Source: a virus. From it: a DNA stretch of 35,613 nucleotides. Shown here one piece after another: positions 1 to 35,613 of the stretch. Every line of letters starts with the position of its first letter. Positions within the stretch are counted from its first letter, which is position 1. The notes under the pieces were generated by a model. The model saw only the letters and a program-made list of their open reading frames with translations. It ran no database searches and was not told where the DNA came from. Location of the stretch: UHGV virus genome UHGV-0122175; one strand, written 5' to 3'. A program made the position numbers and the translations under genes.

Positions 1-49
1 TTTCAACGAATAAGCCAAAACAGGGGGAACAAATTAACACAAATTATAA

Positions 50-1042
50 CTAATCGATGGACAGTTTATGGACACTTTCAGCCAGCGGATTAAAGTTGAT
101 CGCGTCCTGTAAGAAGTCCGGCGAAAAATGAGCGTACGTCATTGTTTGCTGAATCGTTGCGTGCCCCAGGATTCGTTGCAACGTAACAATATTTCCGCCA
201 TTCATCATAAAGTGTGTGGCAAATGTATGACGCATGACATGCGTAGCCTGCCCCTTCGGCAAATCCGGTTTCACCTCCTGAAGAATCTCCCGGAACTTCA
301 GATAATCAACCTGATACAATAACCCCGTTCGACGGGTTTTAATCAGAGGCACGACCGAATCCGCCACAGGAACCGAACGGGATTTTCCGTTTTTGGTGTT
401 AAAGAACGTCACCCGGTTGCCAACGATATGCTCTCCACGTAGTTCCGATGCTTCACTCCATCGGGCACCAGTAGAAAGACACAGAATGGCAACACGACGC
501 GCATCACCCTCCAGTCGCTCAAGAAGCCGTTCAATCTCATCATCAGAAAGAAAGGCCATCTCTGTGTTCTGAACTTTCAGTTTTCGTATACCGCGTACAG
601 GGTTCGCGTTGTGAAAGACCTCAGCTTCAATCAGCACCGTGAACATGGTAGACAGTACGCATAAGTCACGATTAATACTGGACGGCATTAATCCGGCCTG
701 TAATTTCTCTGACCGATATTCAAGCATAAATTTTCGCGTCATCTGACTGGCGCGAGGATCTCCCATTTCACGAACAACCTTCCCTAGCCTAACCCTGTAG
801 CTATCCCCGTAAGCCTGATTACGCCCATCAAGCATCCACCACGCATCAAGCAGCTCTGATAATCGCCGCTGATCAGCTGGCTTAGCCTGCCATGGCTTGT
901 CATGAAAGTTCTGTAACACATACTTCTCAAACTCCTGAGCCTTTGATTTCAGGGCAAAGATTTTTCGAATCCGCTTTCCTTCCGCCCCCTGCGGTCTGAC
1001 ATCGACCTGATAACGTCCGTCTTTGAGTTGCTTAATCGACAT
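50..1042 (-). CDS. int: Phage integrase, tyrosine recombinase (P2 Int-like)
   Basis: 330-aa ORF at the left edge, immediately downstream of the repressor gene on the same strand as in P2 (C then int). C-terminal region (HVMRHTFATHFMMNGGNIVTLQRILGHATIQQTMTYAHF) fits the tyrosine-recombinase catalytic domain. Confidence 0.9.
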   Translation of the reverse strand: MSIKQLKDGRYQVDVRPQGAEGKRIRKIFALKSKAQEFEKYVLQNFHDKPWQAKPADQRRLSELLDAWWMLDGRNQAYGDSYRVRLGKVVREMGDPRASQMTRKFMLEYRSEKLQAGLMPSSINRDLCVLSTMFTVLIEAEVFHNANPVRGIRKLKVQNTEMAFLSDDEIERLLERLEGDARRVAILCLSTGARWSEASELRGEHIVGNRVTFFNTKNGKSRSVPVADSVVPLIKTRRTGLLYQVDYLKFREILQEVKPDLPKGQATHVMRHTFATHFMMNGGNIVTLQRILGHATIQQTMTYAHFSPDFLQDAINFNPLAESVHKLSID

Positions 1043-1111
1043 GATTAGCCCCTCTAACGGATAAATTAACTAAACACTCCTTGCGATATGTAATTCGCTC
1101 AATGTGTAGAG

Positions 1112-1453
1112 TCAGCCAACATTGCGGCCTGATCGGGGTGATTTTTGGGTAATACCGATTGAAACCTGATCGCCCTCCGACTGAATAGAGCCATCAAGAG
1201 AGAGAGCCGGAGCAACCTGCCCGGCAGCGGGAAATGTTTTGTCGTGAAGTATCCACATAGTGTATTTTTCGAATCGCTCGACTTGGATTACTTTTTCTAC
1301 AACCTCAATGCGCGCAGGTTTATATCCAGACTCATAATTTCCTATAGTCCCTACAGAAACCCCCGTTACTTGCGAAAACTGAGATTGTGTAAGTTTTTCC
1401 GCATTTCTGATCGCCTTTAGTTTTTTGGCGTAATCTCTTGACATGTTCACCAT
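1112..1453 (-). CDS. C: Immunity repressor, P2 C-type (HTH)
   Basis: 113-aa ORF with a helix-turn-helix (LTQSQFSQVTGVSVGTIGNYESG). The tail (FEKYTMWILHDK...GQVAPAL) resembles P2 C as I recall it. It is divergent from the Cox-like gene. The true start may be the internal Met at codon 4. Confidence 0.75.
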   Translation of the reverse strand: MVNMSRDYAKKLKAIRNAEKLTQSQFSQVTGVSVGTIGNYESGYKPARIEVVEKVIQVERFEKYTMWILHDKTFPAAGQVAPALSLDGSIQSEGDQVSIGITQKSPRSGRNVG

Positions 1454-1556
1454 ACGATGAGTATCCTCTTTTTACTCTTCACCACAGGGTGAAGAAAACA
1501 AACCAAAACAAACCATCACAAGGCGCAACAAGCGCACCAACGCAAGAGGATAACAA
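1454..1556. promoter_or_regulatory. Divergent early/immunity switch region (Pe/Pc-like) with operator-like repeats
   Basis: 103-bp gap between divergent C and cox-like genes. Contains an inverted repeat CTTCACC-acag-GGTGAAG (1477..1494) and a tandem direct repeat AAAACAAACC x2 (1495..1514). An AGAGGA ribosome-binding site precedes the ATG at 1557. Confidence 0.45.
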
Positions 1557-1862
1557 ATGCGGGACTTCATTGCCGATAAAGAGTTATCTGACCACCAACC
1601 ACTTCAGGAAAGTGACGCACTCAGCGGATCCATTGATGCCGCCAACGACGACGAACACGAAGAAAACAAGAAAAAGCGTTCCTACAAAAAAGGAGCGACT
1701 TTACGGCTGGATGGTCCGATCGCCGGGCTTTGCTCTCTGGAAAAAGGCGCGGCATATATTGGGCTAACAAAATCTGCACTGCGCGTAGCCATTCATCGCG
1801 GTCAAATGCCGGGACACAAGACGCGCACAAACCCGGAAGATGAAAACTCAGACGGAGTATAG
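1557..1862 (+). CDS. Cox/excisionase-like HTH protein ending at an in-frame amber codon
   Basis: ATG with good Shine-Dalgarno sequence. Acidic N-terminal region, then an HTH (GAAYIGLTKSALRVAIHRGQMPG) resembling the Cox/Apl family. The frame stops at TAG 1860..1862 but stays open in the same frame to 2078 (WFNAKEWDKLADELPEHEPPEWHNW...). Confidence 0.5.
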   Translation: MRDFIADKELSDHQPLQESDALSGSIDAANDDEHEENKKKRSYKKGATLRLDGPIAGLCSLEKGAAYIGLTKSALRVAIHRGQMPGHKTRTNPEDENSDGV

Positions 1863-2082
1863 TGGTTTAACGCCAAAGAGTGGGACAAGTTGGCTGATGA
1901 GCTACCAGAGCACGAGCCCCCAGAATGGCACAACTGGAAAAGTTACTGGACGTATGACCGCCAGAAAAGGAAGTTCTCTCCAGCTAATAAAGAAGACTGC
2001 CAGACCATTAACGGTAAGCGAGTTTATACAGGCAGAAGCTCAAAACTGAACCAACTCAGAAACAACAGAGGCAACTAATCGT

Positions 2083-2505
2083 ATGAAAACAAACACGTCA
2101 GATTTCACAATAACTATTTCAAAAAATGACCAAGCATTAATTGATAACCTGAAATACCTTGCGGAAAAACATAATAACGGACGAATTGCAATTAATTTAC
2201 GACACATCACAGGAGTAACAATTGTAACCAGTTACTGGCATCTATATCTAATCGCTAAATCAGTACTGGAAAACAAAGATTCTGTTGTCAATGGAAGAGA
2301 TGTAGATACTCTTCCTGCACAAATCAAACCGATAGCCTATCAATTGCGTAATCGTTTTAAAAATGAAGGTGGGATTATATTTGACTTTCCCGCAGCTGTA
2401 GCCGTGAGCTTCTCTCGGGAGGATATACTTCACTCATTTCGTTTTGCTCTATCAGGTGACGAGACATTATGGCAGCTAGAAGATGCCGGGAGCAGCCCGG
2501 CATAA
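2083..2505 (+). CDS. Hypothetical protein (AT-rich accessory gene)
   Basis: 140-aa ORF in a markedly AT-rich stretch, unlike the phage backbone. A long ORF in AT-rich DNA is unlikely by chance. No family recognised. Confidence 0.55.
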   Translation: MKTNTSDFTITISKNDQALIDNLKYLAEKHNNGRIAINLRHITGVTIVTSYWHLYLIAKSVLENKDSVVNGRDVDTLPAQIKPIAYQLRNRFKNEGGIIFDFPAAVAVSFSREDILHSFRFALSGDETLWQLEDAGSSPA

Positions 2506-2511
2506 ATCAAA

Positions 2512-2703
2512 TTAAAAATCAACCAGTTGTGTGACAGGTGGGTATTTACGCTGAATTTTGTCAGTTACTAACGCCAGTAATATATGAATCTCTGCGTTTA
2601 ATGCGTCTTTATCACCCGTCGTTTTTACCCTAGGAGGGTTAATGTTATCCAGAGCAGCACTAAGGTCACTCAACAAATTAACAACTTTTTTATCTTCTGA
2701 CAT
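2512..2703 (-). CDS. Hypothetical small protein, convergent with the preceding ORF
   Basis: 63-aa ORF, AT-rich. Its stop lies 6 bp from the stop of the 2083..2505 ORF, so the two transcripts would overlap tail to tail. Confidence 0.4.
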   Translation of the reverse strand: MSEDKKVVNLLSDLSAALDNINPPRVKTTGDKDALNAEIHILLALVTDKIQRKYPPVTQLVDF

Positions 2704-2838
2704 GAAAACCTCTAAACAATTTAATTAAACATAAGCCAGGACCTGAACCGGCCAGTCCAAGTCCTAGACACACAAAAAATACCACAAATCAATACAAGGT
2801 GACACGAGTACACCTTACCGAAGGTACAGAGTTTTAAT

Positions 2839-3189
2839 ATGAAACTACAGCGCAATTCTTCACAGCAGCGCTTCCGCAACGGTGCGGAACGCCATGCTAA
2901 CCGTTTCGCTACCAGTGCATCACGTAGCAACTCTCGCTACAGCCTGAGCGAAACACACGCAACGCCGGATGGCTACCCCGTAAAACAAATCGGCGAGCAT
3001 ACCTGGCTGATTGAGAAAGCCGGAATCGTGGTCCACAAATGCCCGCGAAATCCGTTTACCGAAAACCGCATTTTTGCGCTGAGCAGCGGAGACAATCAGT
3101 TCGGACAGGATTTCACATTGTACGAAGCACTACGCACGGTTGATCGCCTGCTGCGTGGACAGAGTTTTATTAAACAGGCTGATTTATAA
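2839..3189 (+). CDS. Hypothetical early-region protein
   Basis: 116-aa ORF, first gene of a co-directional early cluster. No family recognised. Confidence 0.55.
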   Translation: MKLQRNSSQQRFRNGAERHANRFATSASRSNSRYSLSETHATPDGYPVKQIGEHTWLIEKAGIVVHKCPRNPFTENRIFALSSGDNQFGQDFTLYEALRTVDRLLRGQSFIKQADL

Positions 3190-3199
3190 CAGGTGCTTT

Positions 3200-3487
3200 A
3201 TGACTAAAGAACATACTCAGGGTGTATTTATCCGCTTTATTGATTTTCGCGGTGAACTGTTATTACGCGCATCCGCTATTGATGGAGTGGCTCCGGCGGG
3301 GAGAAACGGAACCGCTGAAGCCACTTACGTTTATCTGAACGGCACTCGACTGCTTGTGGAACTTCCGTACCAGAGCGTACGAGAAATCATTAGCGAAGCT
3401 GAAAAGGCACGTCAGGTTAATGGCGATAAACCCTATATCGAAATTATTTGTATGGATTCAGAAGCAGAAATCCAGAAGGCAGATTAA
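3200..3487 (+). CDS. Hypothetical early-region protein
   Basis: ATG at 3200 preceded by AGGTG (MTKEHTQGVFIRF...). Follows the previous stop by 10 bp. Confidence 0.55.
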   Translation: MTKEHTQGVFIRFIDFRGELLLRASAIDGVAPAGRNGTAEATYVYLNGTRLLVELPYQSVREIISEAEKARQVNGDKPYIEIICMDSEAEIQKAD

Positions 3488-3497
3488 AGGGCGTGCG

Positions 3498-3740
3498 ATG
3501 GACAAAGAATATAAAGCTCTCGTCAATAAAGCACTTGAGCGTTTTCATTTTCGCTTAAACACATCAGGGCTTCACGCCGAACACGCAGCCCATGATTCAT
3601 TAGCAAGGGCAATCAGAAGCCTTTATGACGTGGCCTTTTACGCTGACGATTTGGATGCAATTAACGAACTTTCCGAACTCGTCTGCGCTGCAGAATGCGG
3701 GGATCGCATTGAACCATATAAACTGGGGAATATCGCATGA
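3498..3740 (+). CDS. Hypothetical early-region protein
   Basis: ATG at 3498 preceded by AAGGG (MDKEYKALVNKALERF...). 80 aa. Confidence 0.55.
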   Translation: MDKEYKALVNKALERFHFRLNTSGLHAEHAAHDSLARAIRSLYDVAFYADDLDAINELSELVCAAECGDRIEPYKLGNIA

Positions 3741-3850
3741 GTATATTTATGTCATGGATTGTTCTGATTATTTCGGTGGCCTGCGCAATCGGGATTATGC
3801 GAATTATTCATTCAGTGAAAAAGATTGAACGCTTTTTCACTGGCGAATAA
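3737..3850 (+). CDS. Small hydrophobic membrane peptide (37 aa)
   Basis: ATGA start/stop overlap with the upstream gene suggests translational coupling. GGGGAA lies 7 nt upstream. Sequence MSIFMSWIVLIISVACAIGIMRIIHSVKKIERFFTGE has one predicted TM helix. It is below the ORF-track size cut-off. Confidence 0.45.
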   Translation: MSIFMSWIVLIISVACAIGIMRIIHSVKKIERFFTGE

Positions 3851-3943
3851 CAGAGCAAATAAAACACCAGATTAAATAAGAAAACGTGAAAACCATCCGA
3901 ATTAGCGGAGGCATTCACACACGTAAATAATGGAGATACAAAA

Positions 3944-4354
3944 ATGAACGCAAAAGAAAAAGGCATTGTAACTGCGCTAAAAAATATATCGAAGACCGCA
4001 AACAAAGCCATTCAAGATGCAACAAATGCAGGAATGATTGGGCCTGCCACCACAGCCATGATGATAGCAAGAGTAACCGCCGAAGCAGCCGAAATTATCG
4101 AAAAACAGGATGCTGAACTAACGGTTCCCAGAACACAACCAGTCACCGGACTGGATTTGTCTAACACCGGACGCCTTATTTACACAATTGGCTCGGAGCC
4201 ACAGCAATACACCATTATCGCCGGATTACAGGATAAATACTTGATCACTCCTCACCCCATAAGGGAATCAGAAATTCTGACAAATCTCCGCCTGATAGAG
4301 CGCTCTCAAGTCGCATTCATTGATGGCGCGCAACGTGCCGTATTTAACGCATAG
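3944..4354 (+). CDS. Hypothetical early-region protein
   Basis: 136-aa ORF with GGAGA ribosome-binding site. Confidence 0.6.
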   Translation: MNAKEKGIVTALKNISKTANKAIQDATNAGMIGPATTAMMIARVTAEAAEIIEKQDAELTVPRTQPVTGLDLSNTGRLIYTIGSEPQQYTIIAGLQDKYLITPHPIRESEILTNLRLIERSQVAFIDGAQRAVFNA

Positions 4355-4377
4355 GGCTATTGGGCAAAGAGAGCGTA

Positions 4378-4581
4378 ATGGCAATTAAGCATTTTCCCGT
4401 CGTTCGCTTTACCTCCAGAGGACGCGAATACGAGGTCGACGAACGCCTGATTACCACTATCGACAAACACCGTTCAGAAAAGGATGCACATCACATCTAT
4501 CTCACTGACGGCACTTACTTCTGCGCCACGAATGTGGTGCGGGTGAACCTTATCCGACAGGCACAGGAGTCACGCAGATGA
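4378..4581 (+). CDS. Hypothetical early-region protein
   Basis: ATG at 4378 (MAIKHFPVVRF...) with AGAGAG upstream. Its stop overlaps the start of the next gene (ATGA). Confidence 0.5.
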   Translation: MAIKHFPVVRFTSRGREYEVDERLITTIDKHRSEKDAHHIYLTDGTYFCATNVVRVNLIRQAQESRR

Positions 4582-4823
4582 CCATTCTGGACTACATCGC
4601 TGCCAATCCGGGTTGTAGCGGTGGAGAAATCGCCGCAGCACTGAATACCCCAACCACAGCCATTAATGCGGAGTTACGCCGACTCTGGCGCGGCGGCTTA
4701 GTCATCAGAGAAGAACGCAAAACAGGCGGTCGGTTCTCTTACCAGGTAAACCCGATGCCGTTCGGGTGTGGCAACCCACTTACTCACATGTTTAACCAGC
4801 TACTGAAGGAAGCCAGAGCATGA
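4578..4823 (+). CDS. Putative winged-helix DNA-binding protein
   Basis: 81 aa, MTILDYIAANPGCSGGEIAAALNTPTTAINAELRRLWRGGLVIRE, a pattern typical of small winged-helix regulators. Translationally coupled to its neighbours. Confidence 0.5.
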   Translation: MTILDYIAANPGCSGGEIAAALNTPTTAINAELRRLWRGGLVIREERKTGGRFSYQVNPMPFGCGNPLTHMFNQLLKEARA

Positions 4824-5119
4824 GCACCATCAACCACCAGGAACTACGCGAACTGGCGACTGACCTGCAACGAATGGCAACGCATCAAAAATTACTGGCG
4901 TTTCGCGCAATGCTCTCGCCGTCTGCTGTGCTGGCACTGCTGGATGAGCTGGAGCACGCCAGAACCATGGCTCCAGCCATTCGCCTGACGCTCCATCATG
5001 AAATCGCTGATTTCTGCGCGACGTTGGAGGCGCCGGGCGAACCGGAAACGCCGGAAGCAATACAGCAAGAGCTGCTGCAACGCATTGACAAGGTTTTTGA
5101 TTTTTTTCTGAACCAGTAA
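4820..5119 (+). CDS. Hypothetical early-region protein
   Basis: 99-aa ORF, start overlaps the upstream stop. Predicted helical. Confidence 0.55.
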   Translation: MSTINHQELRELATDLQRMATHQKLLAFRAMLSPSAVLALLDELEHARTMAPAIRLTLHHEIADFCATLEAPGEPETPEAIQQELLQRIDKVFDFFLNQ

Positions 5120-5140
5120 GAAACCAGAACATGCACACAC

Positions 5141-5441
5141 AAAAAAACCGCTTGCCATGCCGCAATCAGTCAGGTTACATTTCCGCTGCACCTCATAAAA
5201 CGGGTGCCGGGATTCTCAACCCGATACAGAGCAAAGCGCATAACCGCGCAAGCGGTTTTTTTGTGCGTACCGTATTGCCACGTCTTTTTCGCGTCAGAAT
5301 TATGGCGGGGCGTACGGGGCCGACTTCGGTCGGGCCGGATTCTTTGCTCTCCGGTGTTGAGAACCCTGTACGTCTCGCCACCCCGAGATTCTCAACTCTG
5401 GATGGTGAGTTATTTCTATCACCGAGCAAAGAGGCCACACC
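5141..5441. other. Structured non-coding region (candidate ncRNA or regulatory element)
   Basis: About 300 bp without a convincing ORF. It holds a 15-bp long-range inverted repeat (5141..5155 vs 5248..5262), an imperfect 28-nt inverted repeat (5208..5236 vs 5342..5366), a CCGAC-TTCG-GTCGG hairpin and three copies of GATTCTCAAC. Confidence 0.35.
5242..5262 (+). terminator. Candidate intrinsic terminator
   Basis: AACCGC-gcaa-GCGGTT stem followed by a run of seven T. It lies downstream of the 4820..5119 gene. Confidence 0.4.
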
Positions 5442-5672
5442 ATGGCAAACCGCAAACAGCACCGCGCATACGCTGCGCGTCGTCACATCCAGACTGAAAT
5501 CAACCGCAGACTTTTCCGCGCATTCCGCGTCGCGCAAATCATGCACATCAATATGCTGCATGAGCGCAGTCACGCACTATCGAACAGCTATTCCGCCTCT
5601 GTTTTCAGCTATCTGGCGGATGATCTGCGCGAGCTTCAGCAGCTCATCCAGCAGCAAAACAAACTCCATTAA
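5442..5672 (+). CDS. Hypothetical basic protein
   Basis: 76 aa, AAAGAGG ribosome-binding site, Arg-rich N-terminus (MANRKQHRAYAARRHIQTEINRR). Confidence 0.5.
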   Translation: MANRKQHRAYAARRHIQTEINRRLFRAFRVAQIMHINMLHERSHALSNSYSASVFSYLADDLRELQQLIQQQNKLH

Positions 5673-5744
5673 TTACTGTTCCGGGCCTTTCCTGCACCTT
5701 GCGGCGGGAGGCCTTCGCACATCTGTAACAAGAGGATTGCCGCA

Positions 5745-6110
5745 ATGATTCTCGCCAACGACTTTCTTGAATACCTGCTCAACACAGAACGTGATCTTGC
5801 CGCTCGCGTGCGTGATCGTTATGACATGTACCTGAAATCCCTGCCTGTACCGCAGCTCGCTGACGGAAAGATTGTTATTGATGGTCGCTACATGATTGAC
5901 AGCCATGAGGGAAATTACAGGCTTTACCGCATTGAAGGTGGCACCCCGTACGTTATTGGCATTTACCAGCGCCCATCCTCTGCAATCGTCGATGTGATTG
6001 CCGACAGCATCCGCATCACACATCGCCATGCCGACACAGAAGACACCGTGCTGGAAATTCAGCGGCTGGCTACAGTCTGCCGCGACACCCTGAATGGCAT
6101 GACGAAGTAA
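5745..6110 (+). CDS. Hypothetical protein upstream of A
   Basis: 121-aa ORF with AAGAGGA ribosome-binding site, immediately upstream of the replication gene. Confidence 0.6.
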   Translation: MILANDFLEYLLNTERDLAARVRDRYDMYLKSLPVPQLADGKIVIDGRYMIDSHEGNYRLYRIEGGTPYVIGIYQRPSSAIVDVIADSIRITHRHADTEDTVLEIQRLATVCRDTLNGMTK

Positions 6111-6116
6111 ATCACT

Positions 6117-8939
6117 ATGACGGCAGAGTACATCAGGGACTGGCAGCAACCGCGCCACGCAGTGGGGCGTGAAGGAACGGGGATCCCCGCTCCTGAATCC
6201 GCGCTTTCCTCCTGGCTGGATGCCTACCGGGTAGAGAACGAACGCCGCCAGGAAATGGCTGATGCGGCGTTCTCCACCACGCCGCTGGGCAACCTGATTA
6301 ATAAAAGCCTGGACGCACAGGAAAAACAGGACAAAACCATCACACTGGCAGGAGACGCCAGAAAACAGGCACGCGGCGCGGTGGATGAAGCCATGGCCTC
6401 GCTGCGCCTGCTGCCGTCCTATCTACGCGATCCGCTTATTCGCCACCTCTCCTTCCTGCGCAAAAAACAGGAAGCCGATCGCCGGAAAGGCGAAAAGAGC
6501 TGGCAGGCGGAGCGCTATGCACGCGGAACCCTGCGCAAAATATTCGAACGTCTGGATCGCACTGACGGACGCTGGCTGACACCGGGGTATCGCTCCCTTG
6601 CCGGACGCGAACACCTGGACGATTTGCTGTACCTGCCGCAGCTCAACAAACACCAGATACAGACGCTGGCCACCATGACGGCGGCGATGTTCAGCAGCAC
6701 CTTCGAAAAACTCTGCGATGGCTTTGGCGCGACTGATGGCGAACTGACCATGGATGTAACGCTGAAGGCGTATCAGATGCTGGCCCGCATGGCGTTACAC
6801 CTGCACGCCATGCCTCCACATTATGACGCACTGACAACAGACAAAGACCGGAGGAACGAACCGGACACAGAGCTGCTGCCGGGCGCAATCCTTCGCCTGA
6901 CCTGTGCGGAATGGTGGAAACGCAAACTGTGGCTGTTACGTTGCGAGTGGAGAGAAGAACAACTCCGCGCCGCCTGTCTGGTTTCCAGAAAAACATCGCC
7001 CTATCTGAGCCAGGACGCGTTAAGCGAGTTTCGCGCACAGCGCGAGAAAACACGCGATTTCCTGAAAAGTTTCATGCTGGAAAATGAAGACGGGTTCACG
7101 ATTGATCTTGAGACAGTGTATTACGCGGGAGTAAGTAACCCGGTTCACCGTAAGGCAGAAATGATGGCCACCATGAAGGGGCTGGAACTTCTGGCCGAAG
7201 CCCGTGGCGACAAAGCGGTGTTTCTGACTGTCACCTGCCCGTCAAAATACCACGCCACAACAGAGAACGGTCATCCGAATCCCAAATGGAACGGGGCCAC
7301 CATGCGCGACTCCAGCGATTACCTGGTTAACACGTTTTTTGCGGCGGTCCGCAAGAAACTGAACCGCGACGGCCTGCGCTGGTATGGCATCCGCACGGTG
7401 GAGCCTCACCATGACGGCACCGTGCACTGGCATATGATGGTCTTTGCTCATCCGGAAGAAATCGACACCATTGTGTCCCACACCCGCGATATTGCCATTC
7501 AGGAAGATCGTCACGAGCTGGGCGATGATATTACTCCGCGCTTTAAGGCGGAGTATGTCGACGGCTCAAAAGGCACGCCAACCAGCTACATCGCCACCTA
7601 CATCGGAAAAAACCTGGACAGCCGCGCCGTGGATGGCATCGACCCGAAAACGGGCAAGCCACGCGTTGACCACGAAACCGGAAAATCAATGGCCGAGAGC
7701 GTGGAGCGCGCCATCGGCTGGGCGCGCCTTCACCGGGTCCGCCAGTTCCAGTTCTTTGGCATCCCCTCCCGTCAGGTGTGGCGTGAACTGCGCCGCCTTG
7801 CCAGCCAGATGGCACGCAACCCGGAAGGCCCGCAACGGCTGAAGGATGACGCAATGGATGCAGTGCTCGCTGCCGCTGATGCCGGGTGTTTTGCCTCCTA
7901 CATTGAAAAACAGGGCGGCGTACTTGTTCCACGCAAAGACTACCTGATTCGCACCGCCTACGACCTCGCAGATGAGCTGAACGATTACGGCGAACAGAGC
8001 GTACAGATTTACGGGATCTGGTCACCACTCATCGGGGAGTCTTCCCGTGTGTGCACACATCCGGATAACTGGAAGCTGGTAAGACGTAAACCGGAAGCGG
8101 AAGACAGCGCCCGCGAAAATGGTTTTGACCTTCAGGGCGGCCCTGCCGCCCCTTGGACTCGTGGCAATAACTGTCCCCGTGTACAGGAAACGGACAACAA
8201 CGGGACAGAACAGCCGGAAGAACGGCCAGCACCGTGGCCGCAGCTCCCTGACGGCGTTGAAGTGAACGAATGGATGCGCTCACTGAAACGGCACGAACGC
8301 CGGGCGCTGATGCGTTCGCTTCGTGACAAACAGGCAAAAAACAGCCGTGATGAAATGCAGAGCTGGACACAGAGCCGCAAACAGCAGCGGCCTTTGCCTG
8401 ATAACCACGAACTACTCGCTAAAGAATGGCGGGAGTCTGCTGAATCTCTCGGCCTGCATATCGGTGAACAGCAGATGCAGCACCTGTTACGGGGCGGCAG
8501 TCTGTACGTTGACGGCAGCAACATTGCACCGCAGGGATTTGAAATTGTACGCAAACCGGATACCCGACCGGACAGCCGGATCACGCAGCTCTGGCAGCGC
8601 CTGAGCCGTAACCACGGCGTAAGCAGTACGGAGATCCGCCATAACCCGGTCGCCAGCTATCTGGAACAGCTGGGGACATCAGACCCCGAAGCCGCCGCAC
8701 GCCTGGCATCCACACTTCAGCAAGACCAGAACACCATGAAAACACCCGTTACCGTGCTTTCTGACATGCTGCGCGCCATCCGCGACGCAGAGCACGCACA
8801 GAGAATCAGTGAAACCACTGAACGCGCCCGCCGCAAAGCAGACCTGCTGCGGGGTGGCCTGACCAGTGGAAACAAAAAACAGACAGAAACGGGATTCACA
8901 AATCCCGTAAATGAGCAAAAAACGCGCCGCGATATATGA
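6117..8939 (+). CDS. A: Replication initiation protein A (rolling-circle, HUH-type nickase)
   Basis: 940-aa ORF at the end of the early operon. Contains a His-hydrophobic-His motif (TVHWHMMVFAH) and a paired-tyrosine motif (YIATYIGKN) characteristic of phiX174/P2 A-type initiators. Confidence 0.85.
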   Translation: MTAEYIRDWQQPRHAVGREGTGIPAPESALSSWLDAYRVENERRQEMADAAFSTTPLGNLINKSLDAQEKQDKTITLAGDARKQARGAVDEAMASLRLLPSYLRDPLIRHLSFLRKKQEADRRKGEKSWQAERYARGTLRKIFERLDRTDGRWLTPGYRSLAGREHLDDLLYLPQLNKHQIQTLATMTAAMFSSTFEKLCDGFGATDGELTMDVTLKAYQMLARMALHLHAMPPHYDALTTDKDRRNEPDTELLPGAILRLTCAEWWKRKLWLLRCEWREEQLRAACLVSRKTSPYLSQDALSEFRAQREKTRDFLKSFMLENEDGFTIDLETVYYAGVSNPVHRKAEMMATMKGLELLAEARGDKAVFLTVTCPSKYHATTENGHPNPKWNGATMRDSSDYLVNTFFAAVRKKLNRDGLRWYGIRTVEPHHDGTVHWHMMVFAHPEEIDTIVSHTRDIAIQEDRHELGDDITPRFKAEYVDGSKGTPTSYIATYIGKNLDSRAVDGIDPKTGKPRVDHETGKSMAESVERAIGWARLHRVRQFQFFGIPSRQVWRELRRLASQMARNPEGPQRLKDDAMDAVLAAADAGCFASYIEKQGGVLVPRKDYLIRTAYDLADELNDYGEQSVQIYGIWSPLIGESSRVCTHPDNWKLVRRKPEAEDSARENGFDLQGGPAAPWTRGNNCPRVQETDNNGTEQPEERPAPWPQLPDGVEVNEWMRSLKRHERRALMRSLRDKQAKNSRDEMQSWTQSRKQQRPLPDNHELLAKEWRESAESLGLHIGEQQMQHLLRGGSLYVDGSNIAPQGFEIVRKPDTRPDSRITQLWQRLSRNHGVSSTEIRHNPVASYLEQLGTSDPEAAARLASTLQQDQNTMKTPVTVLSDMLRAIRDAEHAQRISETTERARRKADLLRGGLTSGNKKQTETGFTNPVNEQKTRRDI
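8889..8908. repeat. 20-bp palindrome ACGGGATT-n4-AATCCCGT (copy 1, inside the 3' end of A)
   Basis: Perfect 8-bp inverted arms, read directly from the sequence. Confidence 0.6.
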
Positions 8940-28576: not shown

Positions 28577-31420
28577 TCAATCTTTATCGTAAAAACTGCC
28601 ACGTCCGGCACGGGCGCGCCGTTCCATTTCTGCCCTGACCATTTCACCGACCAGTTTCGCCAGTTCGCGGGGATTCTGTGTAACGACGTTATGCAGATGA
28701 ACATGAATTTCACCGCCAAATCCTGAGGCAACAGGCTCCCGGTTACGGGAAGTTACAGGAACTGATGCCACTGGAGATCGTATGGCCTCCGCCACCGGGC
28801 GGGAGCTGGCCGCAACAACAGGGACCAGCGCCGGAGGCAGCGGAGCCGGGACCACGGGTGTGATATTAATTGCGGGGGCAGGCTTACTGACCTGCGCAAT
28901 CTTCCGCTCCTGCCACTCCCCACGAACAGCAAGTGCGCGGGGCAGGTTCTTAAAGACAATATCGCCGGGGCCAATGCGTTTTTTCGTCTCATCAACCAGC
29001 TTACCTGTGTTATCAGCAATTTTGCTGAGTCTGCGCAGCGTACCAGTATTGCTGTCTGTGAGCGGTTTATTGTCTTTGGGGTTATCACCTCCGGTGCCAT
29101 TGCCATTTTCTACAGGCTTCGGCGGATTGATTTTCGCCAGGTCCCCCTGAAGCAAGGCAACCTTGTCCTGAAGAATGGCCGCACGCTGTGCGTCTTCGAT
29201 TTTCTTTCTCGCCCTTTCCGCTTCATCCGGAAGAACACCGAGTTTTTCAAGTATCCACGCCAGCGTATCCAGCAACATTTTTGCAGGCGTCAGAACAAGC
29301 TGTAACGCGCCACCAAGAACGTTACCGAATATCTCGCCAGCACTGGTACATTTATCCAGCGTTTCCTTGCTGGACTCCATCGGTGACAGCAGCGATTTAA
29401 ACCAGTTAAACACCTGGCTGATCCCGCTTCCGATTGCGTCAAAAACAGGGCCAAACCGTTCAAAGGTTTCACGCAACGGGTTCAGCCTTTCCATAATCCC
29501 GTTGAACACCCCGGCATAAAACGCCTTAATGGGTTCCCAGTATTTCCAGATGAGAACCGCCGCAGCCACAAACGCAGCGGCAATCAATCCGACCGGACTG
29601 AACAGCGCCCCGATAGCGCCTCCCAGTAAAGAAACGGAACCCGTCACCATTCCCCATAGTGCTGGCAGGACCCTGACAGCATTCATTGATCCGGTCAGGA
29701 GAGAAAAACCAAGACGCAGTTTTGCCAGCGGGCCAGCAAGCACACCAATAGCCAGCGACAACGAGCCAACCGTTGCAGTCATTGCCAGCAACGCACCGCC
29801 TGCTATCAGTAGCTGGCGCGTCAGTGCCGGATGGGCCTGCGCCAGCGCCGTCACCCTTGATACCACCCGCGTGAGCCACTGCGTGACAGAACGCAGCGGA
29901 CCGTCAATCAGATCTGCAATGCGGATGCGCAACCCTTCCCATGCACTGCCGAGTGATTTCAGATCGCCGTCAAGGTTGTTGGCCATAACCTTTGCTGTGC
30001 GTTCAGCCTCACCGCGCGCGCCTTCAAGTTCTTTTCTCAGTTTGGGTAAGGAACCGTCACCCGCTGCATCAACGAGCGCCATAAACGATGTGAAAGCCTC
30101 TTCTCCGGCAATGTCCTTAAAGAACGATACCCGGTCAACTTCCCCGTATTTGCGGGTGGCTTTATAAAGGTCGGCCAGCACATCCTCCATCGGGCGCATT
30201 TTGCCGTTCGCGTCAGAGACTGCCACACCAAGCTCTTTCAGAGCTTCTGCCGCCGCCTTTGGCGGTGATGCCAGACGAGCCAGGCTGGCACGCATTGCCG
30301 TCCCGGCATCACTCCCTCTGATACCCATATTCGCCAGCACGCCCGCCATCGCTGCGGCCTGCTCCAGCGATATCCCCAGCTTGCCCGCCACCGGACCTGC
30401 ATATTTCATGGTTTCGCCCAGTGCGCGAAGGTCAGTGTTGGTACGGGTAAACGCTGCGGTGAGCGTGTCGCCAACCCGGTCCATCTGGTCAGCAGAAAGG
30501 CCGAACTGCGTCAGGATATTTGAGCCAATATCCGCCGTCTCGCCGAGATCCATGCCGCCAGCCGTTGCCATGCTCAGCACGCCCGGAAGCGCAGCCTGAA
30601 TGGCCTGCGGTGTGAAGCCAGCCATTGCAAGAAATGCCTGCCCACTGGCGGCATCGCCTGCGGTGAACTGCGTTTCAGAGCCAAGTTTTAACGCCTGCTC
30701 ACGCAGCGCCTTAAACTGCGGGCTGTTTTTGTCGATTCGCGTCAGTGCCTGAACGCGGGACATCTCTTTCCCGAACCCGATCGCAGGCTGCAAAAAACGC
30801 CCGGCAGCATAGCCGCCAGCCGCTGCCGCACCAATTGCCAGCGCACCACCTGTTTTCAGTTTTCCCGCTGTTTCCTGCGCGCGCGAATACCGCTCACGCG
30901 CCCGCGTTACACGCGCAAGCGCCTGCCGTTCGCGTTCAAGCTGGTTGTTGTACTGTTCGGTGCGTCTGATGGCCTGCTGGATGGTGTTATCGCTGCCTGT
31001 CAGGGAAATGCCGTGGCGTTTCAGCTCTCCGCCAAGCTCCCGCATTTTCTGAATTTCCCGTGTACGCGATTCATTCAGGCGTTCAAGCCGGGTGCTTAAC
31101 TGCTGCATCAGCTTTTGTTGTTTTTCGCTGAGCACTGTACCCGTGCGTTGTAACTGATTAAGGGCGTTAAGCTGGCGTCGTGCTTTCACGATGCCCGCAT
31201 CCGCTTTACTGACAGCGTCGCGGGCGCGCTCAAATGATCGCGCCTGACGCTCGAGATTTTTGATCGCCCCCTGCGTTCGCTGGATGGAGTCACCAAACTG
31301 CCCCATCAGGCGGCGGGCGTTTTCGGCAGGTCGGGTCAGCCTGTCAACGGCGCTGAAAGCGACCCGGATATCAAGAGTCTTCATTGTCTGCATTCCCGCT
31401 GCGAAGTGCCGCCCGCTCAC
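28577..31420 (-). CDS. T: Tail tape measure protein (P2 T-like)
   Basis: 947 aa with a coiled-coil N-terminal third and a Gly/Ala-rich hydrophobic core. Located after the E/E' chaperone pair. Confidence 0.85.
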   Translation of the reverse strand: MSGRHFAAGMQTMKTLDIRVAFSAVDRLTRPAENARRLMGQFGDSIQRTQGAIKNLERQARSFERARDAVSKADAGIVKARRQLNALNQLQRTGTVLSEKQQKLMQQLSTRLERLNESRTREIQKMRELGGELKRHGISLTGSDNTIQQAIRRTEQYNNQLERERQALARVTRARERYSRAQETAGKLKTGGALAIGAAAAGGYAAGRFLQPAIGFGKEMSRVQALTRIDKNSPQFKALREQALKLGSETQFTAGDAASGQAFLAMAGFTPQAIQAALPGVLSMATAGGMDLGETADIGSNILTQFGLSADQMDRVGDTLTAAFTRTNTDLRALGETMKYAGPVAGKLGISLEQAAAMAGVLANMGIRGSDAGTAMRASLARLASPPKAAAEALKELGVAVSDANGKMRPMEDVLADLYKATRKYGEVDRVSFFKDIAGEEAFTSFMALVDAAGDGSLPKLRKELEGARGEAERTAKVMANNLDGDLKSLGSAWEGLRIRIADLIDGPLRSVTQWLTRVVSRVTALAQAHPALTRQLLIAGGALLAMTATVGSLSLAIGVLAGPLAKLRLGFSLLTGSMNAVRVLPALWGMVTGSVSLLGGAIGALFSPVGLIAAAFVAAAVLIWKYWEPIKAFYAGVFNGIMERLNPLRETFERFGPVFDAIGSGISQVFNWFKSLLSPMESSKETLDKCTSAGEIFGNVLGGALQLVLTPAKMLLDTLAWILEKLGVLPDEAERARKKIEDAQRAAILQDKVALLQGDLAKINPPKPVENGNGTGGDNPKDNKPLTDSNTGTLRRLSKIADNTGKLVDETKKRIGPGDIVFKNLPRALAVRGEWQERKIAQVSKPAPAINITPVVPAPLPPALVPVVAASSRPVAEAIRSPVASVPVTSRNREPVASGFGGEIHVHLHNVVTQNPRELAKLVGEMVRAEMERRARAGRGSFYDKD

Positions 31421-31640
31421 GCCAGCTAACCACTTCGCCGGGCGTCATCATGAAGATTTCGGCGGGCGACCAGTTAAAAATGGCGGCGATATCTGCCACC
31501 AGATCTTCGATGTGATCAAAGCACACCAGGGTGATTACGCTGCCGTCTCCTGCACGCTCTTCGCGCCAGAGTCTGGCTCGCTCATAAAATTTACAGCCAC
31601 AGCGCACAACTGAATAAAATCGCGTGACGACATTTTTTTA
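31371..31640 (-). CDS. E' extension, -1 frame relative to E (frameshift product E+E')
   Basis: The -1 frame is open from just downstream of the A7 run (plus strand T7 at 31633..31639) to 31371. This overlaps the 3' end of E, as in the P2 E/E' and lambda G/GT arrangement. Confidence 0.5.
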
Positions 31641-31909
31641 ATCATCACTTCATCCAGTCGTGGCGAGGTCACGCGAGGCAACAGCGTGAACATGGTATCC
31701 GCTTTCAGATTCAGCACATCAGACAGCGACAGACCACGCAGGGATCCAGCCTGTTCAATAGCCCCGGTGATCTCCACATACGTGATTTTTTCGCCACCAC
31801 GCTCAATTGGTCGGGTCAGTTTTACGCCACGTTCGACAGCCATATCCTCGCCTGCCGTCACATCATCCGCCACGGTGTTATTCCGGGTTTCAGTATCGAT
31901 GTCTTTCAT
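31535..31909 (-). CDS. E: Tail assembly chaperone E-like
   Basis: 124 aa between the tube and tape measure genes. Contains an ATT-AAA-AAA-ATG run near its 3' end. Confidence 0.7.
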   Translation of the reverse strand: MKDIDTETRNNTVADDVTAGEDMAVERGVKLTRPIERGGEKITYVEITGAIEQAGSLRGLSLSDVLNLKADTMFTLLPRVTSPRLDEVMIKKMSSRDFIQLCAVAVNFMSEPDSGAKSVQETAA

Positions 31910-31964
31910 CAGTTGTCTCCTTTTCAGTCAGAGGCGACGCACTGCGCCGCCTGCATATTACTTA

Positions 31965-32477
31965 TCAGCCAAGCCCAAGCGCGGAACGGATACGGTCAGG
32001 CACAATGTCCTTGCCGTCCTTCCGGTAGATGTGGTTCAACAGGTCGATTTCCCACAGCGGGCGATCGTTAACGCTCAGCTTGTAGTAGGTGTTTTTGACA
32101 GCGTAAGTGTGTGATGTGGCTTCGCCCTGTTTGGCTTCCCCCATATCAATTTCCGTCACACGCCCGCGCATCTCGATTTCATACAGATCGCTTTCTGCAT
32201 CGGTGTAGTATTCACCCGCAAAACGCAGCAGCGTGCCGTCAATCGTACCGCCATATTTAAGGAACAGCGCACGAACAGCTCCCCCCATGACAAAACTCGC
32301 ATCAAGCGCGGAGTCGTCCAGACCGAGATCAATACTTACCGCCCCCATCATGCCACCACCACGATAGCTGTCGGTTTTGCGCGTCAGTTTGGGCGGCGTG
32401 ACGGATGTCACTTTACCCACTTCGTTTTCACCATCCACAAACAACGTAAAAAAGCGAAGATGTTTTGGTACAGCCAT
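31965..32477 (-). CDS. FII: Tail tube protein (P2 FII-like)
   Basis: 170 aa, close to P2 FII in size, immediately downstream of the sheath gene. Confidence 0.85.
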   Translation of the reverse strand: MAVPKHLRFFTLFVDGENEVGKVTSVTPPKLTRKTDSYRGGGMMGAVSIDLGLDDSALDASFVMGGAVRALFLKYGGTIDGTLLRFAGEYYTDAESDLYEIEMRGRVTEIDMGEAKQGEATSHTYAVKNTYYKLSVNDRPLWEIDLLNHIYRKDGKDIVPDRIRSALGLG

Positions 32478-33661
32478 CAGGCACCTCCCAGCACCGCAAA
32501 TGCGGGACCAAAGAATTCATCAGTAAACGTCTGGTAAAGCTCCATGTCTTCCAGCGGGGGAACAGGCGTATATTTGTAGCGAATACGCACACGTCCCTGA
32601 CGTAAATTCGTGGTGCCGTTATCCACCACGTCATACCAGCACTCCGCACCAATCAGTTTCCCGGCAGTAACCAGCGAATCCAGTTTTGCCCTGATGGCAC
32701 TGATAACATCCTTCACGTTCGCAGGCGTCAGTGGACTGTCGATGGTTTCAAACTGCGCTTCCGCAATTGAATCAGCCAGCACCTGTGCGGTTCGGGTATA
32801 CACCTCAAAGATGTAGGCGTTCGTTTCCGGTGTGCGGTTGCCCCAGAAGCGGAACCCGTTGCGACGAATAATGGTCGTGATTTCTTTGTTGTTGAGGCTG
32901 TTGGCATCGCTGTCTTCGGCCTGCAATGACCAGAACACATGCCTGGACATTCCCAGCACATTTTTAACCGGAACGTTGGACAGCGATTTGTGCCAGCCCT
33001 GCTCATGGTCAATGTACGCACGAAGGCCGCACGCATAAGCAGGCGCGGGGAACGTTTCGTTTTTGCCACTTTTCGGGTTGTAGGCGATGAAGTCCGGCCA
33101 TAAGAGCATCACCTCACGTTCGTTGAATTTCTGGCGGTAGGTAATCGCCTCAGCCATCGTGTTACAGCCGTGACATGAGGCATACACAAACGCGCGCAGT
33201 TTACCTGCAATCACGCACAGGGATTTTGTTACAGCCTCCGTGTCCAGCTCCGGCGCGGCCAGAATACGCGGACGGTATCCGATGCTTTCATCCTGCTCTG
33301 CAACAAGCAGCGCATACATCCCCGTATAGCTGCCGTCAGATTCAGAACCACCGATAACCAGTTGATCCTGCGTTTTTCCGTCTTCTTCTTTGTGTTCAGC
33401 CACGCGAACGACGATCACCTTTGTGCTCACCTGGTCTGCGATGGCCTTAAGCGCACGGTAAAGCGTCCCCGTTGTTCCGCATTTTCCCAGCACGTCATTG
33501 ACGCGGGTCAGCAGTGTGGGCTTGTTCAGCGGGAACAGCTCCGCGTCCGCATCATCCGCCGTTGCCACGATACCGATAACACTGGAATCAACATCATTAA
33601 TCGCTGTTACCAGGTCGGTACTTTCCGTAACACGGGCACCATGAAAACGAGTTTCACTCAT
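32477..33661 (-). CDS. FI: Contractile tail sheath protein (P2 FI-like)
   Basis: 394 aa, close to P2 FI in size, first gene of the minus-strand tail operon. Confidence 0.9.
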   Translation of the reverse strand: MSETRFHGARVTESTDLVTAINDVDSSVIGIVATADDADAELFPLNKPTLLTRVNDVLGKCGTTGTLYRALKAIADQVSTKVIVVRVAEHKEEDGKTQDQLVIGGSESDGSYTGMYALLVAEQDESIGYRPRILAAPELDTEAVTKSLCVIAGKLRAFVYASCHGCNTMAEAITYRQKFNEREVMLLWPDFIAYNPKSGKNETFPAPAYACGLRAYIDHEQGWHKSLSNVPVKNVLGMSRHVFWSLQAEDSDANSLNNKEITTIIRRNGFRFWGNRTPETNAYIFEVYTRTAQVLADSIAEAQFETIDSPLTPANVKDVISAIRAKLDSLVTAGKLIGAECWYDVVDNGTTNLRQGRVRIRYKYTPVPPLEDMELYQTFTDEFFGPAFAVLGGA

Positions 33662-33818
33662 AGCTTCAGCCCCTTGTATCCGTTAAATGATTCGGCAACA
33701 ATCATCACCCACCACGCGCGTAATCTCACCCCTGCGCCGTTCTCCCGCCACGGCGACAACAAAAAGCAGTAACCCCCTCCGCACGCACATGCGACCATGC
33801 CGCACAGGGAGGGAACAG
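33662..33818. promoter_or_regulatory. Divergent promoter region between the sheath operon and D
   Basis: 157-bp gap between divergently transcribed late genes. Promoter elements not resolved by eye. Confidence 0.35.
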
Positions 33819-34928
33819 ATGACCGACACCACCATGCAATTGCTCAGTCAGGGCACAGACCCAGTAAAAATGCCGGATTTTGATATTCTCGCGGAGGGTA
33901 AAACGCTGTCAGGCGTGGCAGAGCGCCTGATGAGCCTGTCACTGACCGACAACCGGGGATTTGAGGCGGACCAGCTCACCATCACGCTGGATGATGCCGA
34001 TGGCCAGTTGCAGCTACCGCCACGGGGCGCGCGTCTGACGGTTCTCATTGGCTGGAAAGGAGAGCCGCTGACAGAAAAAGGCACTTACATTGTTGATGAA
34101 ATCGCTCACGAAGGACCGCCGGACAGGCTGACTGTTTCAGCCAGAAGCGCAGATTTTCGGGATGAATTTAACGTTAAACGTGAGGTGTCCTGGCATGATG
34201 TGACCGTTGAGCGTGTGGTATCCGCCATCGCTCATCGGTATGGTCTGAAACCGCAAATCAGCGAAATGCTGATGGATATCGAAATCGACCACGCCGACCA
34301 GACCGAAGAAAGCGACATGTCCTTCCTTACGCGCATGGCGGAAATGCTGGGCGCAATCACCACGGTAAAAAGCGGCAATCTGTTATTCATCATGCCAGGT
34401 GGTGGCGTGAACGCACAGGGCCAGCCGTTGCCCTCGTTCGCCATTACACGCAGCAGCGGCGATCGCCATCAGTTCCGCATTGCTGACCGCGAGGCGTATA
34501 CGGGGGTACGCGCCTACTGGCTTGATCTTAATTACGGGAAAAAGAAAAAAGTCAGCGTGAAACGCCGTAAACCGCCAAAACCCAAAAAGGAGAAAAGCAG
34601 CAGCCGTGAAGGTGATTATATGGAAGGCGCGGAAGGCAATGTGTTTGTGTTACGCAAGACTTATCAGAACGAGCAGGCAGCAAGACGCGCAGCGGCGGCA
34701 AAGTGGCAGCAACTACAACGCGGAGCCGCATCATTCTCCATCACGCTGGCGCGTGGACGTGCAGAACTCTACCCCGAAATGCATGGCACGGTAACAGGAT
34801 TTAAAAGCGAGATTGATAATCAGGACTGGATCATTGCAAAAGCCGAGCACACCATTGATAACAGCGGCTTTACCACGCAGCTTGAGCTTGAGGCAAAAAT
34901 CCCGGAATGGATAGCGGAAACAGAGTGA
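33819..34928 (+). CDS. D: Late control gene D protein (tail/baseplate hub, gpD family)
   Basis: ATG at 33819 with GGGAGGG ribosome-binding site gives 369 aa. Size and position next to ogr match P2 D. Confidence 0.8.
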   Translation: MTDTTMQLLSQGTDPVKMPDFDILAEGKTLSGVAERLMSLSLTDNRGFEADQLTITLDDADGQLQLPPRGARLTVLIGWKGEPLTEKGTYIVDEIAHEGPPDRLTVSARSADFRDEFNVKREVSWHDVTVERVVSAIAHRYGLKPQISEMLMDIEIDHADQTEESDMSFLTRMAEMLGAITTVKSGNLLFIMPGGGVNAQGQPLPSFAITRSSGDRHQFRIADREAYTGVRAYWLDLNYGKKKKVSVKRRKPPKPKKEKSSSREGDYMEGAEGNVFVLRKTYQNEQAARRAAAAKWQQLQRGAASFSITLARGRAELYPEMHGTVTGFKSEIDNQDWIIAKAEHTIDNSGFTTQLELEAKIPEWIAETE

Positions 34929-34970
34929 GCAACTTAGAATAGCGGCAGCACCACGTTAAGGGAGGTCGCT

Positions 34971-35231
34971 ATGTTCCGTTGTCCGCTTTGTGGCGCATCT
35001 GCCCGTATCCGCACCAGTCGTCCGGAAAATGATTCAAACACCGTGCGGCAAAAGTATTACCAGTGTAACAATCTGGAATGCGGCGTATGCTTCTCAACAC
35101 TGGAAGCTTTCCATAAATTCACATCGAAACACGCCTCCGGCGTTCACTCATCAGAAGGTATCCCGTGGCATGAGCTGCCAGCTTCACACAGGGGAAACAA
35201 TCAGATGAGTTTGCCTTTACCTCAGAATTAA
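34971..35231 (+). CDS. ogr: Late gene transcriptional activator Ogr (zinc finger, Ogr/Delta family)
   Basis: 86 aa with the C4 zinc motif CPLCG...(n22)...CNNLECG. Sits at the end of the late region as in P2. Confidence 0.85.
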   Translation: MFRCPLCGASARIRTSRPENDSNTVRQKYYQCNNLECGVCFSTLEAFHKFTSKHASGVHSSEGIPWHELPASHRGNNQMSLPLPQN

Positions 35232-35422
35232 CAGGCAGAATTGCCGGAGTAACAAAAAAGCGATAGATTACGCGCGGGTGCCTTTCGGCTGATGGTCGGA
35301 GGGAATACCCGAAGGCCAGATGTGGAAAGGCCCCGGAAAACATTTCTGTTTAACCGAGGCCCTAACATATCTACCTTAAGCAAGTGATAGGTTAGCGCCT
35401 CTCCAACAAAGGAGCAAGCGCT

Positions 35423-35563
35423 ATGTCGCAAAAATCGCTTATGGCCATCACGTTCTGCGTGACGGTAATCCTCATCATCTGGATGCTGCACGGTTCGCTG
35501 TGTGAAATACGGATGAGCTTCTGGGGAGCGGAGTTTGCGGCGTTCTTACAGTGTAAGCAGTAA
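35423..35563 (+). CDS. hok: Hok/Gef-family type I toxin (small membrane peptide)
   Basis: 46-aa ORF MSQKSLMAITFCVTVILIIWMLHGSLCEIRMSFWGAEFAAFLQCKQ. One TM helix followed by the SLCEI...AAFL.C signature shared with HokA/Hok (from memory). GGAG ribosome-binding site. A perfect 8-bp hairpin lies just 3' at 35571..35592. Confidence 0.65.
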   Translation: MSQKSLMAITFCVTVILIIWMLHGSLCEIRMSFWGAEFAAFLQCKQ

Positions 35564-35613
35564 GGAAACCGCGACGGGGGAGCAATCCCCCGTCAATCGG
35601 TTGCCAGGGTAAA

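Follow-up and report, generated by a model that had tools for sequence, protein, structure and literature searches.

The stretch of 35,613 nt analysed here, which we call the window, begins with a phage integrase gene, ends with ogr and a hok gene, and carries a parMR partition locus; no attachment-site repeat is visible at its ends. This raises the question of whether the window derives from a prophage whose att core lies outside it or from a circular phage-plasmid linearised for display, two readings put forward in a first-pass annotation of the sequence. With a probability of about 95%, we consider the window to be a P2-like prophage (Peduoviridae, P88/PhiECO5-type) integrated in the chromosome.

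Gene content of the window

Gene calls and Pfam searches on two contigs identical to parts of the window, L019 and L050, gave the P2-type late gene set in its P2-type order (Q, P, O, N, M, L ... sheath, tube, tape measure, U, D, ogr), together with gpA and an int-C-cox switch. At one end, int (50-1042, minus strand) encodes a tyrosine integrase of 330 aa with the domains PF24624 Int_N and PF00589 Phage_integrase; exactly this protein adjoins dmsA in nine of the ten loci shown. Next come the gene of a C-type immunity repressor with a helix-turn-helix (113 aa; 1112-1453, minus strand; PF01381), annotated as immunity repressor GpC in ON470623, and cox (1557-1862, plus strand), coding for the excisionase and switch regulator. 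A single G-to-A substitution distinguishes this gene from that of C325, which codes for a 173-aa Cox; it creates an amber codon at 1860-1862 (W102*) and so shortens the product. All ten of the loci just mentioned encode the 173-aa form. Full-length Cox matches PF10743 over residues 58-129, and the 101-aa product of the window falls below scoring.

The replication endonuclease gpA (940 aa; 6117-8939, plus strand) was recognised by PF05840 in L019 and is annotated as replication endonuclease in relatives. The late region begins with the portal gene gpQ (11984-13030) and the large terminase gene gpP (13030-14781), both on the minus strand and called with Pfam in L019 and L050; this segment (11984-14781) is about 95-97% identical to P88 and PhiSM. 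The region extends to the late tail gene gpD (369 aa; 33819-34928, plus strand; PF05954), whose exact product is common to many P2-like prophages, and it is followed by the late-gene activator gene ogr (86 aa; 34971-35231, plus strand; PF04606, E=5.1e-14) and by hok (35423-35563). The earlier description of the window as spanning int to ogr plus hok, with parMR, is borne out by these Pfam matches and coordinates. No tRNA gene was found in the window, which rules out a tRNA-type att within it. The tape-measure ORF, called with a GTG start, returned no record, probably a matter of the start codon.

The window contains no terminal repeat

A repeat search of the window found at least 60 families, and among the 20 largest listed none is a direct repeat joining both ends. 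The longest exact word common to 1-49 and 35232-35420, the two intervals in which the first-pass annotation had seen no shared repeat, is 6 nt (AAAACA), and it remains 6 nt when the second interval is extended to 35613. In shuffled controls, the mean longest common word was 6.4-6.7 and 88-95% of the shuffles equalled or exceeded 6 nt; the match is therefore at chance level and the earlier observation holds. In addition, the 20-bp core defined below, AAAGCGCCCGCAGGCGCTTT, was not found on either strand of the window with up to four mismatches allowed.

Contigs identical to the window continue into dmsA and serS

With 0 mismatches, window 1-18939 is contained in the Logan contig SRR413694_4156 (L019). 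Positions 1-49 form the part of the P' arm distal to the core (attP/attL, from int towards the core), and upstream of position 1 this contig continues with 34 nt of phage DNA, the core and then the dmsA upstream region and dmsABC. On the other side, the JGI contig 3300055680 Ga0250071_00015 (L050, 171.5 kb) matches window 16432-35613, also with 0 mismatches. The last 50 nt of the window (35564-35613) are the first part of the P arm, including a hairpin after hok; in L050 they are followed by 210 nt of phage DNA, the identical core and the 3' end of serS. The evidence for both flanks comes from these two records, which overlap by 2.5 kb, and not from one record spanning the whole window.

In window coordinates, the attL core lies at -53 to -34, 83 nt from the int stop codon, and the attR core at 35824-35843 in extended coordinates, starting 211 nt past 35613. 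With both cores included, the prophage measures about 35.9 kb. It had been suggested that the att core might lie just outside the left edge; the attL core indeed ends 34 nt before position 1, but attR is outside as well, past hok. It had been sought between ogr and hok, at 35232-35420, but hok is phage cargo within the prophage. The repeat is unseen in the window because both core copies sit outside its edges. Flanking host genes and an att duplication immediately outside the window, which the first-pass annotation had named as the observation that would speak against its proposal, were both found, the host genes being dmsA (left) and serS (right) and the duplication a perfect 20-bp core beyond either edge. 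Their presence in contigs identical to the window refutes the circular phage-plasmid reading.

The att core, the empty site and candidate arm sites

We aligned attB of E. coli K-12, attL, attR and a reconstructed attP, and observed exactly 20 common bases, with clean arm swaps on both sides. Between serS and dmsA, K-12 has one copy of the core, which corresponds to the serS terminator hairpin; K-12 therefore represents the empty site. Full-length matches to the attL junction occur in 344, and to the attR junction in 285, of the 5,426 complete E. coli genomes. As for partial matches, those to the attL junction end at the last core base in 10 of 10 listed in a spread sample, and 10 of 10 chromosomal ones listed for the attR junction begin at the first core base.

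In the P' arm, TGGAC is present at 58-62 and 69-73 (plus strand, within 55-78), inside two ATGGAC direct repeats 11 nt apart that overlap the 3' end of int; an identical ATGGAC pair lies in the P arm, outside the window, at -63 and -52 relative to the core. The reconstructed attP (434 nt) has four TGGAC on one strand, against 0.33 expected, and 0 of 2000 shuffles reached four. The repeats on both sides of the core fit the P2-type arm consensus tgTGGaCa (PMC3448106). Judging by their sequence, these ATGGAC pairs are candidate arm-type binding sites of Int.

Integration and trimming

In the mechanism that we propose, the tyrosine integrase would recombine attP with a 20-bp attB that lies between serS and dmsA and constitutes the stem-loop of the intrinsic serS terminator. 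The core would be doubled by integration, with attL by int towards dmsA and attR past hok towards serS. At its left edge the window includes 49 nt ahead of int, which starts at 50, and at its right edge 50 nt beyond hok, which ends at 35563; such pads of about 50 nt at the outermost genes indicate gene-based trimming. The window would have been cut from a larger contig by gene coordinates, presumably by a prophage-calling pipeline, and both cores would have been lost, and with them 34 nt of arm DNA at the left edge and 210 nt at the right. The absence of an att repeat is an artefact of where the boundaries were set by this trimming and not a matter of biology.

The parMR and hok/sok modules

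By Pfam, the genes of an actin-like segregation ATPase, ParM (319 aa; 9016-9975, plus strand; PF06406, E=1.8e-82; PF21523, E=1.3e-68), and of a ParR/StbB-like adaptor (104 aa; 9980-10294, plus strand; PF10784, E=3.7e-26) lie in tandem, as a type II (ParMRC) system requires. As candidates for a parC centromere with iterated ParR-binding repeats, there are two 42-nt repeats (8873-8914 and 8946-8987) upstream of parM with the palindrome ACGGGATT-N5-AATCCCGT, and a stretch rich in ATCGAT 3' of parR (10330-10440); an array of 11-bp iterons like that of R1 was not observed. The hok/sok-type type I toxin-antitoxin locus (35276-35563, plus strand) comprises a candidate mok leader and sok region (35276-35433) and the Hok peptide. 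The latter belongs to the Hok/Gef family (PF01848, 30.3 bits for a cut-off of 22), and the sok region matches Rfam RF01794 with 47.9 bits (E=1.4e-9), under the gathering score of 59. The same hok segment is also present in phage records, among them those of P88, which has been induced, and of PhiSM, an active phage.

We conclude that parMR, located in the accessory hotspot between gpA and Q, and hok/sok, located between ogr and attP, belong to the accessory modules that are common in the lineage, and that they do not point to a plasmid replicon. Any role of parMR or hok in the prophage is presumptive. Why an integrating phage lineage retains parMR is a question already raised in print (PMC9122126). 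An improbable idea is that P2-like phages carrying parMR together with hok/sok, which make up about a quarter of the group, pass through a real, if short-lived or optional, phase as plasmids that both modules would stabilise. Such a phase may occur as a circle, ahead of integration or following excision, or as lysogeny where the host has no attB; the circular PLSDB record pZ1323PEC0009-2, discussed below, may then be an example. This idea concerns the lineage and not the copy in the window, which is integrated and has the cox amber codon.

Alternative explanations

A complete circular phage-plasmid genome, displayed in linear form and kept outside the chromosome through parMR and hok/sok, had seemed to agree with the gene content of the window. 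The genes are real: parM, parR and hok are present and apparently intact. Yet parMR matches in complete E. coli genomes, of which about 24% carry the locus, are chromosomal in 1441 of 1443 cases and on plasmids in two, and matches to the int end are chromosomal in 377 of 377 cases and never on plasmids. Partition and addiction modules are insufficient alone for membership among phage-plasmids, and with host flanks present and attP absent from the window, the element does not appear as an autonomous circular replicon; a circular genome would hold attP, but the core is missing from the window, as are about 244 nt of arm DNA, the identical contigs continue into dmsA and serS, and the integrase is intact. 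In PLSDB, only seven records have parMR of the window type, most of them large replicons or apparently mislabelled chromosome pieces. The only phage-sized circular one, pZ1323PEC0009-2 (34,461 bp), is an entire related P88-like phage and speaks on the other side, since it indicates that an extrachromosomal form of relatives has been assembled at least sometimes. Taken together, we regard a circular origin of the window as very improbable.

Equally improbable in our opinion is a degraded prophage that lost one or both att sites by deletion, its source genome being also repeat-free. The nonsense mutation in cox implies some decay, but both cores are intact and identical in the perfectly matching contigs, and the window edges fit gene pads of about 50 nt and not a deletion junction. 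Still less probable is that the window is virion or cos-linear phage DNA ending at its packaging ends. Nothing specific in the window supports it, a contiguous attP would be expected within such a genome, and phage records of the lineage that open at the packaging end start at about 11533-11578, in the interval separating the accessory hotspot from the portal gene, and not beside int or hok. The integrated prophage trimmed at its outermost genes is the reading that we retain.

Significance for annotation

The biological weight of this result is small: the element is a common, already catalogued P2-like prophage at serS-dmsA, and publications have already described both PhiECO5 of UTI89, which is of this prophage type, and the occurrence of parMR in P2-like phages. 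A literature search combining serS, dmsA and prophage returned nothing relevant. The lesson concerns annotation, in that gene-based trimming of prophages strips att sites; a partition system and a toxin-antitoxin module in a window trimmed in this way should not count as evidence for a phage-plasmid.

Comparison with known systems

The closest published counterpart is the prophage PhiECO5 of E. coli UTI89 (NC_007946, 911187-948481; Nilsson, Cardoso-Palacios and Haggard-Ljungquist 2011, PMC3448106). It shares the serS-dmsA site, parM/parR after gpA and a P2-type C/Cox switch, and in UTI89 as in C325 the gene order is that of the window prophage, serS-hok-ogr-D...parR-parM-gpA...cox-C-int-dmsA. 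The published end coordinates of PhiECO5 fall within both 20-bp cores defined here. PhiECO5 differs in the accessory genes of the gpA-Q hotspot, in the early region and in the tail-fibre region, and the Cox of UTI89 has its full 173 aa, whereas that of the window stops at the amber codon 102. CP015085, reached through a 413-aa gpD ORF, has an element at the same site, but its hok region is unlike that of the window and it was set aside.

P88 (NC_026014) and Citrobacter phage PhiSM, P2-like phages of the Xuanwuvirus type, are inducible or active temperate phages (PMC5285337, PMC6456863). They show about 96% nucleotide identity over window 2832-24628, a span covering gpA, parMR and structural genes, and the hok segment is alike too. 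In contrast, their int/C/cox and att module is unlike that of the window, with no match to 1-2830 and homology stopping about 80 nt past the right edge; the different module implies a different chromosomal attachment site. More generally, the sheath, the 369-aa gpD and Hok are widespread, and the same late genes with hok were also seen at a number of further att sites, combined with different int modules. In the phage collection, no record covers more than 80% of window 1-25000 and no contiguous attP was found for the int type of the window; the records labelled "phage" that do carry this int are predicted prophages with dmsA included. In IMG/VR, the first 50 bases of the window matched one contig of 17 kb, which is not its source.

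With P2 itself, the element shares the gene order, an attP between ogr and int, a tyrosine integrase, a short core, TGGAC-type arm repeats, the C/Cox switch, rolling-circle replication by gpA and an accessory hotspot between A and Q. It is well established (see also PMC9122126) that P2 uses a different core and different attB sites (locI and others), lacks a hok gene following ogr and carries old/tin instead of parMR in the A-Q hotspot; its nucleotide match to the window is confined to the tail-fibre tip. Phage-plasmids of the P1, N15 and SSU5 types likewise combine a partition system with a toxin-antitoxin addiction module, and they replicate as plasmids in lysogens and appear on extrachromosomal records. 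Unlike them, the element in the window has an intact integrase and defined attL and attR sites, and it is essentially always chromosomal.

Integration of the prophage at the serS terminator

The element is a P2-like temperate phage. As described in the first-pass annotation, it carries int, ogr, hok and parMR: a tyrosine integrase gene (50-1042, minus strand; Pfam Int_N and Phage_integrase) at one end, ParM (9016-9975) and then a ParR/StbB-like protein (9980-10294) encoded 3' of gpA, and Ogr (34971-35231) and a Hok/Gef peptide (35423-35563) at the other end. The hok leader (35276-35433) matches the Rfam sok model with 47.9 bits (E=1.4e-9), a score that is below the gathering score of 59 yet significant. 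No tRNA gene was detected within the window. The absence of a direct repeat at the window ends was borne out, as none of the direct-repeat families listed links the two ends and the longest word shared by 1-49 and either 35232-35420 or 35232-35613 is 6 nt, which does not exceed the level of shuffled sequences.

Exact-protein look-ups led us to two public contigs that share the sequence of the window exactly where they overlap it: Logan contig SRR413694_4156, which covers 1-18939 with 0 mismatches, and JGI contig 3300055680 Ga0250071_00015 (171.5 kb), which covers 16432-35613, also with 0 mismatches. To the left of position 1, the Logan contig continues with 34 nt of phage DNA followed by AAAGCGCCCGCAGGCGCTTT, the region upstream of dmsA, and dmsABC itself. 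Beyond 35613, on the right, the JGI contig continues with 210 nt of phage DNA, the same 20-bp core and the 3' end of serS; at least one hairpin that resembles a terminator and scores on both strands lies in this right-hand phage stretch, the P arm. In extended window coordinates, the attL core is thus located at -53..-34 and the attR core at 35824..35843, and the prophage, both cores included, measures about 35.9 kb. The serS-dmsA intergenic region of E. coli K-12 contains a single copy of the core. When attB, attL, attR and the reconstructed attP were aligned, exactly 20 bases were common to all of them, with a clean exchange of arms.

We also observed that the core, read along the sense strand of serS, forms the terminator hairpin of this gene. 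As a consequence of integration, serS keeps the hairpin on the attR side with only 3 of the 7 trailing T residues, and on the attL side the int transcript gains the hairpin and the full T-run.

The same junctions were searched for in complete E. coli genomes. Full-length matches to the attL query (dmsA side plus int side) occur in 344 of 5,426 genomes, and to the attR query in 285. Among the partial matches listed, a spread sample, the attL alignment ends exactly at the last core base (10/10), and among the chromosomal partial matches listed the attR alignment begins exactly at the first core base (10/10).

Both arms of the reconstructed attP contain a pair of ATGGAC direct repeats with a spacing of 11 nt. 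The P-arm pair lies beyond the window, at positions -63 and -52 relative to the core, and the P'-arm pair is at +92 and +103, corresponding to window 58-62 and 69-73 and overlapping the end of int. This attP has four copies of TGGAC where 0.33 would be expected, a number not attained in any of 2000 shuffles. From this anatomy, the most likely mechanism is that Int would recombine attP with the serS terminator core.

Why the window lacks its attachment sites

The window starts 49 nt ahead of int, whose lowest coordinate is 50, and ends 50 nt past the last base of hok (35563). Since the att sites are 83 nt (int side) and 260 nt (hok side) from the outermost genes, a pad of about 50 nt necessarily cuts both of them off. 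These edge positions come straight from the sequence; from their symmetry, the pattern expected of gene-based prophage trimming, we infer that a pipeline made the cut. The missing att repeat is a trimming artefact. The proposal that the core lies just beyond the left edge was correct, and it holds for both edges, the cores being found in the two contigs. The interval between ogr and hok was nevertheless the wrong place to look for attR, because hok is phage cargo and attR lies beyond it.

Phage records including those of P88 and PhiSM, an induced and an active phage, respectively (PMC6456863), contain this hok segment too, and elsewhere in the chromosome it travels with the late genes at several sites where the int module is a different one. 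Among relatives, prophages near pgsA/uvrC, tamB/ytfP, bamD/raiA, pheT/ihfA and others share the sheath, gpD and Hok proteins. Between D, ogr, hok and attR these prophages have varied cargo, including TIR, SIR2, YafO and RES-domain genes. This pattern shows that int/att modules are swapped modularly and that the right end is a cargo hotspot.

The first-pass annotation had alternatively suggested a circular phage-plasmid linearised for display, in agreement with parMR and hok. Both are genuine, but neither points to a plasmid here. The suggestion is refuted by the finding of host flanks (dmsA, serS) and the 20-bp att duplication immediately outside the window, which that annotation had itself named as refuting; moreover, every circular form would have to include the attP core and approximately 244 nt of arm DNA, both of which are absent from the window. 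In complete E. coli genomes, all 377 matches of the int end are chromosomal, as are 1441 of the 1443 matches of the parMR module (1303 genomes). Only 7 PLSDB records have this parMR, mostly large replicons or apparent chromosome fragments. About one P2-like phage in four has a putative partition system, located in the gpA-Q accessory hotspot; both this and the speculation that such a system might permit plasmid maintenance are already published (PMC9122126). The sole hint of a plasmid state is pZ1323PEC0009-2 (PLSDB NZ_CP148288.1, 34,461 bp, circular, labelled plasmid), a whole P88-like phage genome that carries int, cox, parMR, hok and a Com/methyltransferase module. This record may represent a stable plasmid, or else an excised or replicating molecule that the assembler closed. 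For the window, integration in the chromosome followed by trimming of the record accounts for its ends.

Around parMR, two 42-nt direct repeats within 8873-8987, each with a ACGGGATT-N5-AATCCCGT palindrome, straddle the gpA end just upstream of parM, and an ATCGAT-rich stretch (10330-10440) lies 3' of parR. Judging from sequence, either may be the parC centromere.

Early region and tail-fibre segment

In the window, cox (1557-1862) has a TGG-to-TAG change at 1860-1862 (W102* amber), giving a product of 101 aa. Cox is 173 aa long in C325 and UTI89 and at ten further loci that share this Int, and the truncated form loses the Pfam Phage_Cox match. In P2, Cox is required for excision and for the lytic switch; the window prophage is therefore probably defective in both and locked in the chromosome.

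Two RNAs score above the Rfam gathering scores, the isrK Hfq-binding RNA (5188-5262, 63.1 bits) and the C4 antisense RNA (5298-5385, 78.5 bits), inside or upstream of an ash/derepression-like ORF (5131-5748). This stretch is a P1/P7-type antisense immunity element within a P2-like early region.

Further on, 65-nt inverted repeats (24323-24387 and 27342-27406) bracket fibre-tip and Caudo_TAP (assembly) genes in opposite orientations (25424-27175), and a serine invertase gene (27457-28047) adjoins them. The region 24323-28047 is likely an invertible host-range segment providing alternative tail-fibre tips.

Comparison with known phages

Both the element and its notable cargo have been described before. 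P88 and PhiSM are about 96% identical to window 2832-24628 but differ in the integration/immunity module (window 1 to about 2830 and the att region). E. coli C325 and UTI89 have the complete arrangement serS, hok, ogr, D ... parR, parM, gpA ... cox, C, int, dmsA. The one in UTI89 was already listed in 2011, under the name of prophage PhiECO5, at 911187-948481 (PMC3448106), and both of these published end coordinates lie within the cores as defined here.
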